The notes under the pieces: model-generated | Database searches by the model: none | What the model was told of the DNA's origin: nothing | The model's input: only the letters and a program-made list of their open reading frames with translations | Part shown: positions 25,817 through 47,486 of the stretch, one piece after another | Numbering within the stretch: the stretch's first letter is position 1 | Layout of the letters: every line of letters begins with the position of its first letter | Translations under genes and position numbers: made by a program | Source: a virus | Taxonomy: Duplodnaviria > Caudoviricetes | Strand: one strand, 5' to 3' | IMG/VR virus record: IMGVR_UViG_3300012979_000043 | Coordinates: 5,615-69,614 of that record | DNA length: 64,000 nucleotides

Positions 25817-26203
25817 CTAATTTGTATTGTCAATAGATTTTTCATTCTCTAATAAGATTTTTTCTTTTTCTTGTATCTTTAATTCATCCAATGTCCATTC
25901 ATCTGTTAAAATATCATTTTCATTGACTAATATGGATAATTCTGGGACATCAAAATATACCCAATTTTCATTAATTGTTTGAATGGTTTGAACAACACCA
26001 ACAGGTGTCTGTTGAACAATTGGTTTTGTTATAGTTACTGGTGCATCTCTACATTCAATAACAATTGTTCCATCTTCTTCTATTACATATTTTGGTTCTT
26101 TATGTCCATACTTGTAAATATTATCTAACCAATATGGTTCTTTATATGTATTAGGTATAACAACTACCAATTTATTATTTCTTTTTTCAACCTTTATTGT
26201 CAT
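25817..26203 (-). CDS. hypothetical protein
   Basis: 128 aa ORF, ATGA overlap with upstream gene. Confidence 0.6.
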   Translation of the reverse strand: MTIKVEKRNNKLVVVIPNTYKEPYWLDNIYKYGHKEPKYVIEEDGTIVIECRDAPVTITKPIVQQTPVGVVQTIQTINENWVYFDVPELSILVNENDILTDEWTLDELKIQEKEKILLENEKSIDNTN

Positions 26204-26754
26204 TTAATTGCCTCAATATGATTTTTAATTTTTTGTTTTATTTCTTCCAATGTAACTGGTTCAAAATCATTATTATCAACACCAACATCCCAGCAATTTA
26301 TATTTGCTCTTGCTCTTTTAGAAGTTTCTTCTAACAAATGATATGTTCCATGTGTATGACCATATAAGTGATAACTATCATAATAATATCCATTCCATTC
26401 TGAAATTGGAAAGTGAAATAAAACAACTCTATCATCACCATCTTTAACTTCATGATATGTTACAATATCTTGAAAAGATGCTGACTTGTAATAATTATCT
26501 AATCTATCATGATTACCAGCAATAAGTATTTTTTTACCATTTAATTTAGACATTAATTCTTTAATTTGTTTTGAATTAAAACCCCAACAAAAATCACCTA
26601 AAATATATACAGTATCTTCTTCTTTTACTTTATTATTCCATTTATCGATTAACCCTTGTTGCATATCTTCAACTGATGAAAATGGTCTACCTTTTCCAAA
26701 AGTTAAAATGTTTTTATGTCCAAAATGCTGGTCTGATGTATAAAAAATAGTCAT
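26200..26754 (-). CDS. calcineurin-like phosphoesterase
   Basis: SDQHFGH, LGDF, GNHD, HFP, YGHTH, DVGVD. Confidence 0.88.
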   Translation of the reverse strand: MTIFYTSDQHFGHKNILTFGKGRPFSSVEDMQQGLIDKWNNKVKEEDTVYILGDFCWGFNSKQIKELMSKLNGKKILIAGNHDRLDNYYKSASFQDIVTYHEVKDGDDRVVLFHFPISEWNGYYYDSYHLYGHTHGTYHLLEETSKRARANINCWDVGVDNNDFEPVTLEEIKQKIKNHIEAIK

Positions 26755-26824: not shown

Positions 26825-28147
26825 CTAAATTGATTCTTTTTCAATTTCAATAATATAATTAAAAACTTTATCAGAAATTCCATTGATATGAATAAAACCT
26901 TTTTCATATCCAACACCTTTATTACCATATGGTGCTATATTAATAATATATTTGTTTTTTACAGAACAATCAATTGCACAATCTTGTGTCTGTTCATCTG
27001 TAATCACAATAATTCTATCATATTTACAACTCTTAGTAATATTATCAATAGCATTCCACATATATGTACATCCATGATATTGGGAGTCCCTAATTGATTG
27101 TGCTAGTGCAAATCCACGTCTATTTGGAACTCTGACAACATTATTGGAAAATGTAAAAATATCAATTTCTTCATATAATTCTCTTCCAATCATTGCTAAT
27201 GATTCTGCATAATCAAGTCGTGATGTGAATGCACCATTACTACAACTTGTTTCCATAGATCCAGAAACATCAACTAATATAATTGTTTTTCCATCAATTT
27301 TTGGTTTAATAAATGATTTTAATAATTGATTTTCAATTTCATTTTCATATTTTGGGTTCATTTTTCCACTTCTAATGAAATCAATTGGTAACAATTTATC
27401 ACCATTAATTGTTTTAATTCTATTTTTGATAATATTTACATCAATGCCGACTTTATCCATATTAGAAATATTTTTCAAAAATGCCATATCACCTAATTTA
27501 TTTTTATTCAATAAATTAATCCAAGCATCTTGTTTATTTGATGTTTCTTTGCCAGCAGATGACAATGCAACTTCCCATGTTTCAGCAATTGGTAATGTTC
27601 CATTAATTAATTTATTAATAGCTGTGGTTGATTTTGGATGGCACAAATTTACTACATCTACCAATTTATAATTAGCATCACGATTCCATTTTTGTAATTG
27701 ATATTCATCAAATTTTTCTAATGCCAATGCTATACCTTTTTTCATTTGATTTGGTAGTGGTTTTTTACCATCAATCATATATAATGATATTAACTCACCA
27801 CAATCATCAGGTCTTGTTAAAATTGATGCAATAATATTTTTATTGACAGATTGTCCAGCATTAAATACAGATACAATCATCCACAATGGACAATGCCTTA
27901 ATTTCATATCAAACTTAACTTGTTTGATTAATTCTACAACAGAATCAATTAAATCTTTATCAATACACAGTTTGACAAGTTCCTTGATTCTATCTGTAAT
28001 CTTCTTGCCATTTTCATAAAATTCATCTTCCCACAATAAACAGGACATCACTGACCGTTTTAATTGTTCAAATACATTAATTGTTGATGCTTTACCATTT
28101 TCATATGTTAAGTTTGGTTCTTTTTTTACTGCTTTATTTGTTTTCAT
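26825..28147 (-). CDS. Ro60/TROVE-domain RNA-binding protein (Rsr-like)
   Basis: QLKRSVMSCLLWEDEFYE, LRH.P, RPDD.GE, ETWE..LS, MAFL.N; vWA MIDAS-like DVSGSM and ITDEQ. Confidence 0.92.
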   Translation of the reverse strand: MKTNKAVKKEPNLTYENGKASTINVFEQLKRSVMSCLLWEDEFYENGKKITDRIKELVKLCIDKDLIDSVVELIKQVKFDMKLRHCPLWMIVSVFNAGQSVNKNIIASILTRPDDCGELISLYMIDGKKPLPNQMKKGIALALEKFDEYQLQKWNRDANYKLVDVVNLCHPKSTTAINKLINGTLPIAETWEVALSSAGKETSNKQDAWINLLNKNKLGDMAFLKNISNMDKVGIDVNIIKNRIKTINGDKLLPIDFIRSGKMNPKYENEIENQLLKSFIKPKIDGKTIILVDVSGSMETSCSNGAFTSRLDYAESLAMIGRELYEEIDIFTFSNNVVRVPNRRGFALAQSIRDSQYHGCTYMWNAIDNITKSCKYDRIIVITDEQTQDCAIDCSVKNKYIINIAPYGNKGVGYEKGFIHINGISDKVFNYIIEIEKESI

Positions 28148-28168
28148 ATTCAACACTCCATTATAAGG

Positions 28169-29106: not shown

Positions 29107-29178
29107 TGCATCTATTAGTTTCTGGAATCAATCCTTACTTATAATTCTTACCACGTAAAGGTTAGATGCACAAGAATC
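29107..29178 (-). ncRNA. HDV-like (theta-type) ribozyme Rz1
   Basis: P1 GATTCTT/AAGAATT, P2 TGCATCTA/TAGATGCA, P3 ACC/GGT, L3 TTTACGT, J4/2 GAAACTAA. Confidence 0.8.
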
Positions 29179-32411: not shown

Positions 32412-32418
32412 ATAGGTA

Positions 32419-32491
32419 TTGCAGAGATGGGATTTGCACCCATGACCTCTGGCGTATGAGACCAGCAAGCTACTATCTGCTCTACTCTGCT
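32419..32491 (-). tRNA. tRNA-Met(CAT), initiator-like
   Basis: A1-A72 mismatch, A11:U24, loop CT-CAT-AC; no encoded CCA. Confidence 0.85.
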
Positions 32492-32499
32492 AAAAAAAT

Positions 32500-35585: not shown

Positions 35586-35659
35586 TGGTAGACCCTGACA
35601 GTGCTGCCCTGCCGACTCAACCGTGTAAAGGTTATGTGATACTGTTTCACCAAGGGTCC
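35586..35659 (-). tRNA. tRNA-Val(TAC)
   Basis: Loop TT-TAC-AC, atypical T loop GGCAGCA, CCA. Confidence 0.85.
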
Positions 35660-39586: not shown

Positions 39587-39656
39587 ATGATATGATAGGA
39601 TTCGAACCTATGACCACCAACATTAAGTCGGTGCTCTACCACTGAGCTACATATCC
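39587..39656 (-). pseudogene. degenerate tRNA
   Basis: Canonical D and T arms but shortened anticodon loop (CCGAC-TTAAT-GTTGG), 1:72 mismatch, no CCA. Confidence 0.6.
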
Positions 39657-39728
39657 ACCAATAAGGCATCAACATTTTTTTATAAGATGTAGTCTCTACC
39701 ATCTGAGATATACATCTTATATGGTATA

Positions 39729-39820
39729 TAATCAATTTTAGTTTCGGTTTTTTATGCAATCAATGCTAAACCTACTTACATTCCCAACCACGTGAAGGTA
39801 TTGATTATCTTTATGGGAAC
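39729..39820 (-). ncRNA. HDV-like (theta-type) ribozyme Rz2
   Basis: P1 GTTCCCA/TGGGAAT, P2 TAATCAAT/ATTGATTA, P3 ACC/GGT, L3 TTCACGT, GAAACTAA. Confidence 0.8.
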
Positions 39821-40942: not shown

Positions 40943-41014
40943 TAGCAAATTAGTTTCATTCATAAATGAATTACTTATACCCAATACCACGTAAAGGTTT
41001 TGCTATTATTGGGC
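40943..41014 (-). ncRNA. HDV-like theta ribozyme Rz3 at the tRNA-Tyr 3' end
   Basis: G1 directly follows discriminator A73; P1 GCCCAAT/ATTGGGT, P2 TAGCAAA/TTTGCTA, L3 TTTACGT, GAAACTAA. Confidence 0.88.
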
Positions 41015-41097
41015 TGGACAGGGATGGATTCGAACCACCGAACTCCGAAGAGGTCAGGTTTACAGCCTGATGCATTTAGCCACTCTGCCACCTGTCC
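41015..41097 (-). tRNA. tRNA-Tyr(GTA)
   Basis: Loop CT-GTA-AA, long variable arm, no encoded CCA. Confidence 0.93.
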
Positions 41098-41106
41098 ATT
41101 TAAAAT

Positions 41107-41170
41107 TGGTTGCGAGTTCTAGGGAGCTACCCTAGAATTTCTTCGTTAATGAAACGAAAAGCTACTCGCA
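41107..41170 (-). ncRNA. D-armless, CCA-ended tRNA-like RNA (64 nt)
   Basis: TGCGAGT/ACTCGCA-A-CCA, TTCGT-TTCATTA-ACGAA arm, TCTAGGG-TAGCT-CCCTAGA arm. Confidence 0.65.
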
Positions 41171-41182
41171 TAAAAATAATTA

Positions 41183-41263
41183 TATAAACTCTTGATGGAG
41201 TTGAACCATAACTGTCGTTCTTTTTCAAGAAAGGATATTACCCAATATCTGCAAGAGTTTATA
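41183..41263 (-). ncRNA. tRNA-like/pseudo-tRNA element
   Basis: 12-bp terminal stem TATAAACTCTTG/CAAGAGTTTATA, GATATT/AATATC arm, ATGG-TTCAACT-CCAT T arm; weak anticodon arm, no CCA. Confidence 0.5.
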
Positions 41264-41373
41264 AAAAATACTTTAATTAAAAAATGACTGACATTCTATA
41301 CTTGAACTATTAGATGTACACAACCCACCCCGATTTTGTCACTTCCACAAAAAGCTTCAATCATTTTTTATTA

Positions 41374-41476
41374 GATGATATTTAGTTTCAGTTACAACAC
41401 TGATCAGCAATTGTTAGAGTTAATAACTCACCTACTCACATTCTCCACCACGTGAAGGTAATCATCATTGGAGAAC
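41374..41476 (-). ncRNA. HDV-like ribozyme Rz4
   Basis: P1 GTTCTCC/GGAGAAT, P2 GATGAT/ATCATC, L3 TTCACGT, GAAACTAA. Confidence 0.78.
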
Positions 41477-41749
41477 TATGGTGGTAAATGTATAGAATAT
41501 CCACTAATGGTTGATTACTTCCTTTAGCAATCATTCTATACCCACACATAATAGAACCTCTCTATCACTCGTTCTACAGAGCGTCCCACTTCCCTATTTA
41601 AGCACAAACTCTGGGCCCGAATCATCATCTATTTGATAAGGCAGGTTATGAATTATCTTAGTGCATTCTGCCAATGTCTTTCCATTAGTCCATAGTCTTT
41701 CCCATTGTATAACAATGACTTCATAGTAATCAACTGTCCATTCATTATT

Positions 41750-41838
41750 TATGACTTTTAGTTTCATCATAAGGATGCATCCTATATGATTACTTACATT
41801 CCTCACCAACGAGAAGGTAGTCATATTATTTGAGGAAC
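41750..41838 (-). ncRNA. HDV-like ribozyme Rz5
   Basis: P1 GTTCCTC/GAGGAAT, P2 TATGACT/AGTCATA, L3 TTCTCGTT, P4 ATCATA/TATGAT, GAAACTAA. Confidence 0.8.
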
Positions 41839-41902
41839 ACTTTATTATACATAGGGTGATGCAAATGTAAGGAAAAATCATCACCCAACATATAAAAAAT
41901 AG

Positions 41903-42040
41903 AAGGACAATGCCACAACACGATTATTATCTCTCAACTATGCCACCCACTATATAATATAGTCATCATAGGTTCTTTTTACGAGTTCCTAAATAACCCT
42001 TACTAAACAAACATTGTGGTGTTTGTTATTCTGTGTCCTT
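41903..42040 (-). ncRNA. unassigned structured RNA between Rz6 and Rz5
   Basis: AAGGACA/TGTCCTT closing stem; hairpin loop CCACAA complementary to distal TTGTGG. Confidence 0.45.
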
Positions 42041-42172
42041 TGTATCAATTAGTTTCCACTGACAACTCTAAACAGAGACCTTCTGCTCTCTCCACTGCAG
42101 ATATGCTTTATTAACACCATCCATCAGGTACTTATGTCTTAAACCAACGTAAAGGTTTGATACATTTAAGAC
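42041..42172 (-). ncRNA. HDV-like ribozyme Rz6 (long P4)
   Basis: P1 GTCTTAA/TTAAGAC, P2 TGTATCAA/TTGATACA, L3 TTTACGTT, GAAACTAA. Confidence 0.78.
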
Positions 42173-45152: not shown

Positions 45153-45803
45153 CTATTTTTCTAAAATGAATGTTTCATACAAATCATCAAATAAAATTGG
45201 AATCTGTTTATGAAATTCAACCAATACCATTTTCATAATTTCTTGAACTGATGGATGTGCTGCTTTTGCACATCTTAATGAAAATATGTGACGCCACTCT
45301 CTGACATTAGCTTTCAGATTTATATTGCACTTCAAACTATGTGGCAAAAGCATTCTCAATTGGTCTGGTTTACATCCTAATTCTGCCATTTGATTGTATG
45401 TTGTTTCAATATTGTTCATACAATCTAACCATAAATCATATTCTTTTGTTCCTTCTTCAATATTACATGGTTTAATAACAGTAATTTCATTACCAAATTT
45501 ACCCTTGCTATAGTTACAATACCGTGTGCTTTCAACAGCAAATGAACAATGTCTATGTCTTGTTAAATCTTTTAAAACACCTGTATCAGCAGTTAAAATT
45601 ACGTGAATATCAGCAAATTCAATCATTGCTGTGTGACCCATTTCAATTAATTTAGAAATCATTTTTTTAGCAGATTCTGTATCTTCACTAATGTTATCTT
45701 CTGTTTTATAACATGTTCGTGCTGCTCTCTCAATTGTTTTAAGAATTTTATTTCCATCAATTTCTGTAATGATTTCAACACTTGGTTCAACAATTTTTAC
45801 CAT
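45153..45803 (-). CDS. thyX: flavin-dependent thymidylate synthase
   Basis: GHTAMIEF, LTRHRHCSFAVESTRYCNY, NVREWRH. Confidence 0.93.
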   Translation of the reverse strand: MVKIVEPSVEIITEIDGNKILKTIERAARTCYKTEDNISEDTESAKKMISKLIEMGHTAMIEFADIHVILTADTGVLKDLTRHRHCSFAVESTRYCNYSKGKFGNEITVIKPCNIEEGTKEYDLWLDCMNNIETTYNQMAELGCKPDQLRMLLPHSLKCNINLKANVREWRHIFSLRCAKAAHPSVQEIMKMVLVEFHKQIPILFDDLYETFILEK

Positions 45804-46147
45804 TAATTTTCTCCTAATAATTGTTTAATTTCTTTGCTATAATCAAAATGGTTCTTAAATACCCCTACATTTTCTTTCATTAAATGATATAATTTTATTC
45901 TAATATAGTTTAATTCACCATTCTTTACACAAATAATATCAGCATTATTATCATAATATATAACATCAACAATTTCACATCCATCAACAGATTTGCCTTT
46001 TAATCTTTCAAACAATCCTTTACTATTATGTGTTTCACTTGATACATCATTATTGTTATTATGAACACTACCATGCGGAATATATCTACTATAAGCAGGT
46101 GTTGATAACATTGTCAGAATCAAAAACAAACTTAAAATCTTTTTCAT
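45803..46147 (-). CDS. hypothetical secreted protein
   Basis: Signal-peptide-like MKKILSLFLILTMLSTPAYS. Confidence 0.65.
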   Translation of the reverse strand: MKKILSLFLILTMLSTPAYSRYIPHGSVHNNNNDVSSETHNSKGLFERLKGKSVDGCEIVDVIYYDNNADIICVKNGELNYIRIKLYHLMKENVGVFKNHFDYSKEIKQLLGEN

Positions 46148-46202
46148 TACTTTTCTCCTTCAATGCTATCAATATACACCATTTTAATTTAAATGTCAAG
46201 TT

Positions 46203-47486
46203 CTATTTTAACAGTTTTTCAAAAATTGCTTCTAATACCGGAATAACAATACCATTACCGGCAGTTTTATAAAGTTGAGCATCTGAAATGCCATGAATTT
46301 TATCAAATTGTTCATCTTTCCAACCCATAAGTCTATAACATTCTCTTGGTGTCAACTTTCTAATTTTGTAGTTAGAAATGATTTTTTCATTTGATGTTGT
46401 TGCAGTAAGAGTTGGTGATAATCCTTCTTCATCATAACATCTATTTGCTTTTTCATATACACCATCTTTTTCTTCAAATGTCATAATACTTTCATCAAAC
46501 ACTGTTGTTTCAATTTTAAGTAATTCTTTTAATTGATTCCATAATTCAGCATCAGGAATAGCAAAACAATCATCTGTTCTAAACCAATGTTCAACTTTTG
46601 TTAATGGAATTCCTAATGATTCAGCAATTTGATTATTGGTTAATTCACTAAAACAATTTGGTTCATTAACATTGTTTGTAATTTCTGCCTTTTTACCATT
46701 TGGCATATCAAATTCAATAATCTGCTTTGGTTGTTTATAATCTGTTGCAACTAATGCACCCATTGTATTTTCTGTATTATATACAATATCTCTCTGACCA
46801 ATACTTCTACTTTCAGGTGCAGTTGTCCCAATAATTGATTGACCTTGTGGTTTATATTTAAATCTTTGCTGAACCTTTTCAGACAAATAATATTTGGCAT
46901 CAACAATTGGTTCTAGGATATCCTTTAATCTAATATTTAATTGTCTTGGTTCAGGAAATACATATGGTTTATGTTCTCCTAAAATAGATACACAAAAAAC
47001 TCGTTCCCTATTCTGTGGAACCCCAAAATCTTTTGCATTTAGGACTTTATAATAATTAGTATATCCCATATCTTCTAAAACCTTTAACCAACCTTCAAAG
47101 TTATGAATATGCTTTTTAGATAATAGGTTTTTAACATTTTCCATTAAAAGATACTTTGGTTTAACTTTTTTAATTATCTTTTCACATTCCCAAAGTAATG
47201 ATGACCTTGTTCCTGAATCTTTATCACCACCTGCTTGTTGACCAGCAATACTAAAATCTTGACATGGACTTGAATATGTAATCAAATCCCATTGACCTTC
47301 AATCATATGTTCAACATCAACCTTATTAATATCTCCTAAATTGATTGTTTCACCATGTATTTGGTTATAAATGCTTTCAGCATACTTATCAATATCACAT
47401 TGAGTTGATTGATGTTCAATTCCAATGTTTTTAAGTGCTTGTGTTTGACAACCAATTCCACTAAATAATTCTAAAACTTTTAACAT
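46203..47486 (-). CDS. DNA (cytosine-5) methyltransferase
   Basis: LELFSGIG, SPCQ, ENV, PQNRERVF, RKLTPREC, AGNGI. Confidence 0.93.
   Translation of the reverse strand: MLKVLELFSGIGCQTQALKNIGIEHQSTQCDIDKYAESIYNQIHGETINLGDINKVDVEHMIEGQWDLITYSSPCQDFSIAGQQAGGDKDSGTRSSLLWECEKIIKKVKPKYLLMENVKNLLSKKHIHNFEGWLKVLEDMGYTNYYKVLNAKDFGVPQNRERVFCVSILGEHKPYVFPEPRQLNIRLKDILEPIVDAKYYLSEKVQQRFKYKPQGQSIIGTTAPESRSIGQRDIVYNTENTMGALVATDYKQPKQIIEFDMPNGKKAEITNNVNEPNCFSELTNNQIAESLGIPLTKVEHWFRTDDCFAIPDAELWNQLKELLKIETTVFDESIMTFEEKDGVYEKANRCYDEEGLSPTLTATTSNEKIISNYKIRKLTPRECYRLMGWKDEQFDKIHGISDAQLYKTAGNGIVIPVLEAIFEKLLK

Follow-up and report, generated by a model that had tools for sequence, protein, structure and literature searches.

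A predicted theta-like ribozyme directly behind a CCA-less phage tRNA-Tyr and its likely role in forming the tRNA 3' end

The stretch of DNA analysed here, in the following called the window (64,000 nucleotides), belongs to an IMG/VR virus record of 69.6 kb with an estimated completeness of 19%. Where at least a quarter of the words sampled from the stretch recur in a sequencing run, that run is in most cases a metagenome of animal gut or feces, from several different studies; a single one comes from an anaerobic digester. ARAGORN lists 21 tRNAs in the window, of which 18 encode the terminal CCA. As stated in a preliminary description of this DNA, the tRNA-Tyr and a Met-type tRNA (32418–32492, minus strand) do not, and a 70-nt tRNA (39587–39656, minus strand) has to be added as a third exception. 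The tRNA-Tyr gene (41015–41097, minus strand; 83 nt plus flanks) is called Tyr gta by ARAGORN and forms an intact cloverleaf of the bacterial class II type, in which the acceptor stem has 7 bp and the D stem 3 bp, with a GTA anticodon, a long variable arm and the discriminator A73 at position 41015. Its score with the Rfam tRNA model (60.3 bits) lies within the range of the neighbouring tRNAs. Directly 3' of A73 follow G, C and C and thus CCA is not encoded. The Met-type tRNA has a mismatch at the top of its acceptor stem, and the 86-nt spacer between it and tRNA-Glu contains hairpins and a T-arm-like segment; neither an HDV-like ribozyme nor any Rfam match was found in this spacer. The 70-nt tRNA is called Leu(TAA) by ARAGORN, yet has no long variable arm, and it shows no homology to suppressor-like tRNAs on other ribozyme-bearing contigs. 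A near-match to the ribozyme core described below (35620–35640, minus strand) lies just upstream of tRNA-Gln. The surrounding segment looks like the D-arm part of this tRNA, and the near-match is probably the remnant of a duplicated tRNA rather than a ribozyme.

The 72 nt that follow tRNA-Tyr (40943–41014, minus strand) are predicted to fold into an HDV-like, more precisely theta-like, ribozyme, as judged from a full-length match to a covariance model, from a parse of the helices and from a weak match to the Rfam family RF02682. P1 consists of 7 bp between the 5' strand GCCCAAT (41008–41014) and ATTGGGT (40979–40985), the first pair being a G1·U wobble, and is followed by a J1/2 of two bases. 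P2 is a perfect 7-bp helix between its 5' strand at 40999–41005 and 40943–40949 and forms a pseudoknot across P1. P3 (ACC/GGT, 40986–40998), the core of which is invariant in the family, encloses a 7-nt L3 (UUUACGU). P1.1 contains a single Watson-Crick pair, U 40993 with A 40978, and U stands opposite U in the second position. Between P1.1 and J4/2 lie 23 nt that include P4, a hairpin of 5 bp with a 4-nt loop (40958–40971), which is flanked by the conserved motifs AAGUA (40972–40976) and GAAA (40954–40957). J4/2 (CUAA, 40950–40953) begins with C 40953, the positional counterpart of the catalytic cytosine, the role of which is known from the HDV ribozyme and from theta ribozymes (PMC10879173). 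All helices of the Tyr-linked ribozyme are perfect (P1 7/7, P2 7/7, P3 3/3, P4 5/5) and all conserved core bases are intact, including the core ACC-U-NN-ACGU-GGU and the CUAA-type J4/2 of the theta descriptor. HDV-type ribozymes cleave 5' of the first base of P1. Since P1 cannot be extended upstream, where A 41015 would face A 40978, the scissile bond is predicted to lie between 41015 and 41014. The tRNA ends at 41015 and the match to the covariance model starts at 41014, so that G1 indeed directly follows A73, as had been claimed, at a distance of 0 nt and within the 5-nt limit of the theta descriptor. The previously given coordinates and description of the tRNA-ribozyme unit (40943–41097) were confirmed by Infernal with Rfam models, by ARAGORN and by the end-to-end covariance match. 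A tRNA-Lys starts 36 nt downstream of the ribozyme.

Several lines of evidence indicate that this fold is not fortuitous. A 27-nt core pattern shared by the ribozymes occurs four times in the window, always on the minus strand, as compared to 0.00 occurrences expected from 100 shuffles. IMG/VR was scanned with the ribozyme core and a covariance model, R1, was built from four unrelated phage matches, excluding the window sequence. R1 matches 40943–41014 from end to end with 74.3 bits and an E value of 2.2e-11, the highest score of any ribozyme copy in the window. At the gathering thresholds of Rfam, only tRNAs and no HDV model were matched in the window. When matches up to an E value of 10 were admitted, a single sub-threshold match appeared, HDV-F-prausnitzii (RF02682), with 22.7 bits as compared to a gathering score of 44 and an E value of 1.3, starting exactly at 41014. 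The minimum-energy fold of the 90 nt after tRNA-Tyr is no better than that of shuffled sequences (z -1.06) and lends no support, as is to be expected for a pseudoknot, which is invisible to this method. A loose HDV descriptor consisting of helices only gave hundreds of matches in the window, the DNA of which is AT-rich, and was replaced by the conserved core and the covariance model. In the assembled contigs of four RNA or possible-RNA runs, the pieces found were mostly tRNA-like matches from other organisms, without starts or ends, and they speak neither for nor against cleavage or expression.

Pairing was analysed in a model-guided alignment (A3) of 53 matches from other phages, 37 of them distinct; a MAFFT alignment (A1) had P1 and P2 out of register and was not used for this purpose. 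Among the 37 distinct relatives standard pairs occupy 98.6% of the pair cells, as compared to 34–49% when the 3' partners are slid by 1–3 columns and 64% in shuffles, the slid-partner control being the fairer yardstick because A3 was fitted to the structure. Twelve of the 14 pairs, the P1.1 pair included, change on both sides. All seven pairs of P1 show compensatory changes, with 98.4% of the cells paired, P3 is paired to 100%, and in P4 (97.2% paired) all three modelled pairs change on both sides. R1 lost the register of P2, and in a separate parse 23 distinct P2 helices were found in the family, each fully complementary. The cytosine of J4/2 is invariant, being present in every row of A1 and A3. 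In the layout of L3 and P1.1 the second base of L3 pairs with the first base after the 3' strand of P1, and the other position is U opposite U. The pair is U-A in 32, C-G in four and G-C in one of the 37 relatives and is unpaired in none. Judged from these sequences, P1.1 is real yet reduced to one pair. That a one-pair P1.1 is the norm of the subfamily and that U-A covaries with C-G points to selection.

R1 finds five further copies in the window, all on the same strand as the Tyr-linked ribozyme. One of them (42041–42172; R1 match 42112–42172 and helix parse) has a long P4 and another one (39728–39820; R1 match 39730–39820) scores 41.5 bits; both lie behind a promoter and a conserved leader. 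The copy at 29107–29178 (47.5 bits) belongs to the size class of the Tyr-linked ribozyme, the one at 41750–41838 reaches 35.9 bits, and the weakest match (41374–41476; R1 match 41374–41475; 27.2 bits, E 0.009) has a P2 of 6 bp. Since five of the six ribozymes of the window do not stand beside a tRNA, formation of tRNA ends is not the sole use of the family in this phage. The two copies at 42041–42172 and 39728–39820 are located about 45 nt behind near-identical modules consisting of TTGACA, 17 nt, TATAAA and a conserved leader that ends in GAAA just before G1; through cleavage the RNA would lose the leader and start with the ribozyme as a cap bearing a 5'-OH. In the region 41015–42172 (minus strand) four ribozymes are arranged in series on one strand, with spacers of 200–360 nt that look mostly non-coding, and serial self-cleavage in this region would yield discrete RNAs with 5'-OH and cyclic-phosphate ends.

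By protein identity the closest relatives of the window phage are G001 (helicase 49%, Ro60 61%) and G002 (Ro60 61%). In both genomes the ribozyme most similar to the Tyr-linked copy is found directly 3' of a CCA-less tRNA-Met. In G001 this Met-linked ribozyme has nearly the same P2 and P4 as the Tyr-linked copy and a wholly different P1. As in the window, most tRNAs of the G001 tRNA island end in CCA: ARAGORN flags 14 of 17, and a fifteenth, a tRNA-Ala, has ACCA just past the ARAGORN boundary. In the more distant 281-kb phage G003, ribozymes of the same family follow a tRNA-Glu with full CCA, a tRNA-Gly with CC and a tRNA-His with CCA plus one base, and the tRNA-Tyr of this phage encodes CCA and has no ribozyme. 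An orthologous tRNA-Tyr-ribozyme junction was not found in the relatives, and there is no DNA match to the tRNA-Tyr of the window in G001, G002 and G004. Across IMG/VR phage contigs, the same core adjoins 18 other sense-tRNA anticodon species for 15 amino acids, and a scan of IMG/VR for a T-loop followed by the core retrieved tRNAs for Thr, His, Glu, Ser, Pro, Leu, Ala, Met, Lys, Asn, Arg, Trp, Cys and Gln. In this small and pattern-biased sample the tRNA-Tyr of the window is the only Tyr. Ribozyme modules seem to move between tRNAs, and theta ribozymes have likewise been found with several tRNA isotypes (PMC10879173). On L008 (6573–6721, plus strand) the discriminator of a tRNA-Lys is followed by CCACCAA and then by the first base of the ribozyme, and cleavage would leave a CCACCA-like tail on this tRNA. 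On L005, L006, L011, L016, L026, L048 and other contigs, ribozymes of the same family are located 3–4 nt after a short GC-rich hairpin and not after a tRNA, which suggests a further role of the family in forming the 3' ends, protected by a hairpin, of other RNAs.

The preliminary description had proposed that at tRNA-Tyr a ribozyme takes the place of an encoded CCA. The Tyr gene itself agrees with this proposal; as a rule it holds as a tendency only, since G003 ribozymes follow CCA-encoding tRNAs and the two other CCA-less tRNAs of the window, the Met-type and the 70-nt tRNA, adjoin no ribozyme of this family according to the R1 matches. It had also regarded a sense tRNA as a departure from the theta arrangement, and this view cannot be upheld. 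Theta ribozymes were described as minimal HDV-like ribozymes of gut Caudoviricetes with a cleavage site abutting phage tRNAs (Kienbeck et al., Nat Commun 2024; PMC10879173). They occur beside tRNAs of all amino acids, only about 20% of the associated tRNAs are suppressors, and CCA is encoded in only 4.5% and missing from 95.5% of them (PMC10879173). In annotated phage databases the cleavage site of 77% of the tRNA-associated theta ribozymes lies at most 1 nt from the tRNA end, and the tables combining annotated and metagenomic hits comprise 13,257 tRNA-associated hits (PMC10879173). Four tRNA/theta pairs, Leu and Val included, self-cleaved in vitro and a C-to-U change abolished cleavage; moreover, a CCA-adding enzyme is 250-fold enriched in phages carrying theta ribozymes (PMC10879173). 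As published theta ribozymes mostly adjoin CCA-less sense tRNAs, the sense tRNA-Tyr is no departure, and a CCA-less sense tRNA followed by a theta-type ribozyme is the typical case published in 2024 and already known.

With theta ribozymes the Tyr-linked element shares a cleavage site, predicted in its case, that abuts the 3' end of a CCA-less phage tRNA, P3 (ACC/GGT), L3 of the form U-NN-ACGU, a J4/2 CUAA with the catalytic C, and P1 and P2 of 7 bp each. The animal gut is probably the habitat of both, as judged for the window DNA from metagenome runs, and a CCA-adding enzyme, encoded by relatives of the window phage, is a further point in common. It differs from them in P1.1, which is UU/AU with one Watson-Crick pair in the window copy and CC/GG in every listed theta ribozyme, and in its 5-bp P4 flanked by AAGUA and GAAA in place of the 6–7-nt L4 of the listed sequences. 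In the part of the 2024 supplementary tables that was covered, TT and TC variants of the core are represented by 0 entries, as compared to 1439 for the CC core, and the exact core of the present subfamily is not among them; CC/GG in P1.1 and a short L4 are theta traits as judged from the listed sequences. A further difference from theta ribozymes concerns the phage, as in the window the standard code gives long open frames, ARAGORN finds no suppressor tRNA and there is no sign of recoding. With HDV-like ribozymes in general (Rfam HDV_ribozyme clan, RF02682, drz family) the element has in common the nested double pseudoknot and a predicted cut 5' of the first P1 nucleotide, and with members of the Rfam clan and drz ribozymes also the G1·U wobble, the cytosine that starts J4/2 and the presence of P4. 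Unlike members of the Rfam clan, it stays below the Rfam threshold (22.7 vs 44 bits) and has only one pair in P1.1. Two aspects are modestly new: the subfamily itself, which combines a P1.1 of one pair with a P4 between conserved AAGUA and GAAA, and the connection with a CCA repair enzyme of the HD-domain type that the closest relatives encode.

How could tRNA-Tyr acquire its 3' end? The sequence makes it very likely that the element is a functional ribozyme setting this end, and we hold it to be highly probable that the entire explanation applies, that is, that the 72 nt behind tRNA-Tyr function as a theta-type HDV-like ribozyme which forms the tRNA 3' end, followed by healing and CCA addition. 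Sequence anatomy, exact juxtaposition, family-wide covariation and recurrence of the layout are observations, from which catalysis, end chemistry and the identity of the healing agent have to be kept apart as what we infer. The ribozyme would fold into its double pseudoknot while the precursor is being transcribed, and, with C 40953 as the catalyst, the 2'-OH of A73 (41015) would attack the bond that links A73 to G1 (41014). HDV-type cleavage gives an upstream product with a 2',3'-cyclic phosphate and a ribozyme with a 5'-OH. The tRNA-Tyr would thus be set free with exactly its discriminator as the last nucleotide, carrying the 2',3'-cyclic phosphate, and the ribozyme with its new 5'-OH would stay attached to the RNA downstream, in which tRNA-Lys follows after 36 nt. 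For CCA-less tRNAs the ribozyme cut would in this way do the job of RNase Z. As in the pathway of RNase Z and CCA-adding enzyme, the cut falls right after the discriminator and CCA addition follows, but RNase Z leaves a 3'-OH ready for CCA and the ribozyme, to judge from HDV chemistry, a 2',3'-cyclic phosphate, so that an extra healing step would be needed. The cyclic phosphate would have to be opened and removed before CCA is added, a point that the preliminary description had also made and that is sound as a deduction from the established chemistry of HDV ribozymes; a text search of the 2024 main text found no mention of the 2',3'-cyclic phosphate end or its healing (PMC10879173). With one U-A pair and U opposite U in P1.1 instead of the two G-C pairs of the listed theta ribozymes, activity could be slow.

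For the healing and CCA steps one has to turn to relatives and to the host, since the 69.6-kb record contains no match to the Pfam families of CCA-adding enzymes (PolyA_pol) and RNA ligases (RNA_ligase). As the record represents about 19% of the genome and some 80% is missing, absence of a CCA-adding enzyme is uninformative. Pfam scans of 30 ORFs of the window detected no kinase, ligase or RNA repair enzyme of the 2H or RtcB type and a single metallophosphoesterase. G001 and G002, in turn, each encode a protein of 417–421 residues with a PolyA_pol head, RNA-binding domains and a weak HD match, which remains below the Pfam threshold (16.7–18.2 vs 22 bits). The best NCBIfam match of this protein is NF008137, 'multifunctional CCA addition/repair protein' of the E. 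coli type, with 416–430 bits, just below the equivalog cut-off of 451 bits, and covers model positions 1–361 of 409. The HD domain of the E. coli CCA enzyme is described as removing 2',3'-cyclic phosphate from tRNA ends (PMC6961547, citing Yakunin et al., 2004). By analogy, a CCA addition/repair enzyme with a phosphohydrolase (HD) domain, as found in the closest relatives, is the preferred candidate and would be the likeliest healing agent. Other options would be a host enzyme or the calcineurin-like metallophosphoesterase encoded at 26200–26754 (minus strand; Pfam Metallophos 33.5 bits, cut-off 21.5; PHROG 547 'phosphoesterase', E 6e-50), a candidate for cyclic-phosphate removal whose nearest solved structure is the uncharacterised Aquifex protein 1xm7. 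Its homologue was found only in G001 and is absent from G003, G004 and G005, which carry ribozymes of the family, and hence there is no signal of co-occurrence between phosphoesterase and ribozyme. The metallophosphoesterase gene follows a Ro60-like TROVE/vWA gene (26825–28156, minus strand), for which G001 and G002 contain the homologues with 61% identity mentioned above.

Other readings of the locus have to be weighed against tRNA end formation by the ribozyme. The ribozymes could serve as general RNA punctuation, mainly providing a downstream RNA with a structured 5' end that bears a 5'-OH, or separating transcription units, in which case the position behind tRNA-Tyr would be incidental and the tRNA end could be made by host RNase Z. 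The five copies away from tRNAs, two of them behind promoter and leader, the many copies 3–4 nt after hairpins in other phages, and the offsets from the discriminator, which vary in the relatives (0, 1–2 nt, CC, CCA, CCA+1), would all fit such a role. However, of the tRNAs listed by ARAGORN only three lack CCA, and it is precisely at the discriminator of one of them that the cut would fall; this zero offset recurs with Pro, Ala and Leu tRNAs in other phages and is the commonest arrangement in the published set, with 77% at 1 nt or less (PMC10879173). Moreover, the RNA downstream of the Tyr-linked copy is the precursor of tRNA-Lys, whose 5' end would be set by RNase P regardless, and punctuation as the main function at this site is therefore considered distinctly improbable. 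Even less probable, indeed very much so, is a decayed or very slow relic with tRNA-Tyr being matured by host RNase Z and CCA-adding enzyme. The weak P1.1 with its one A-U pair and the lack of a match above the Rfam threshold could be taken as signs of decay, but all helices are perfect, the conserved core bases are intact, the copy is the best-scoring one of the window (74.3 bits), and a one-pair P1.1 in which U-A covaries with C-G is the norm of the subfamily. That tRNA-Tyr might be a CCA-less pseudogene and the junction without a translational role is hardly credible: the missing CCA is unusual in an array in which 18 of 21 tRNAs encode it, yet the cloverleaf is intact at 60.3 bits with GTA anticodon, long variable arm and A73, and 95.5% of the published theta-associated tRNAs also lack an encoded CCA (PMC10879173).

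A more far-reaching interpretation, which we regard as speculative and rather unlikely, is that the P4-bearing ribozymes with one-pair P1.1 constitute a separate, so far undescribed HDV-like lineage acting as general RNA punctuation in large gut phages, and that maturation of tRNA-Tyr is gated by an end-healing activity of the phage, either an HD-domain CCA repair enzyme of the kind encoded by G001 and G002 or the phosphoesterase (26200–26754). If true, this would put the supply of tRNA-Tyr under the control of the phage rather than of the host. The preferred reading, tRNA end formation by a theta-type ribozyme, contributes a well-supported case, that of a tRNA-Tyr, to the published view that in gut phages tRNA 3' trailers are cut by small HDV-like ribozymes and not by a protein nuclease. 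Furthermore, since the P4-bearing subfamily with one-pair P1.1 falls outside the listed theta ribozymes and yet abuts many sense tRNAs on large phage contigs, motif searches fixed on CC/GG would undercount such elements. The CCA addition/repair enzyme of the closest relatives offers a concrete and testable answer to the question of how CCA can be added to a tRNA that a ribozyme has cut. Elsewhere in the window (45153–47486, minus strand), a ThyX-type thymidylate synthase gene adjoins a gene for a C-5 cytosine DNA methylase, upstream of a DnaB-like helicase.
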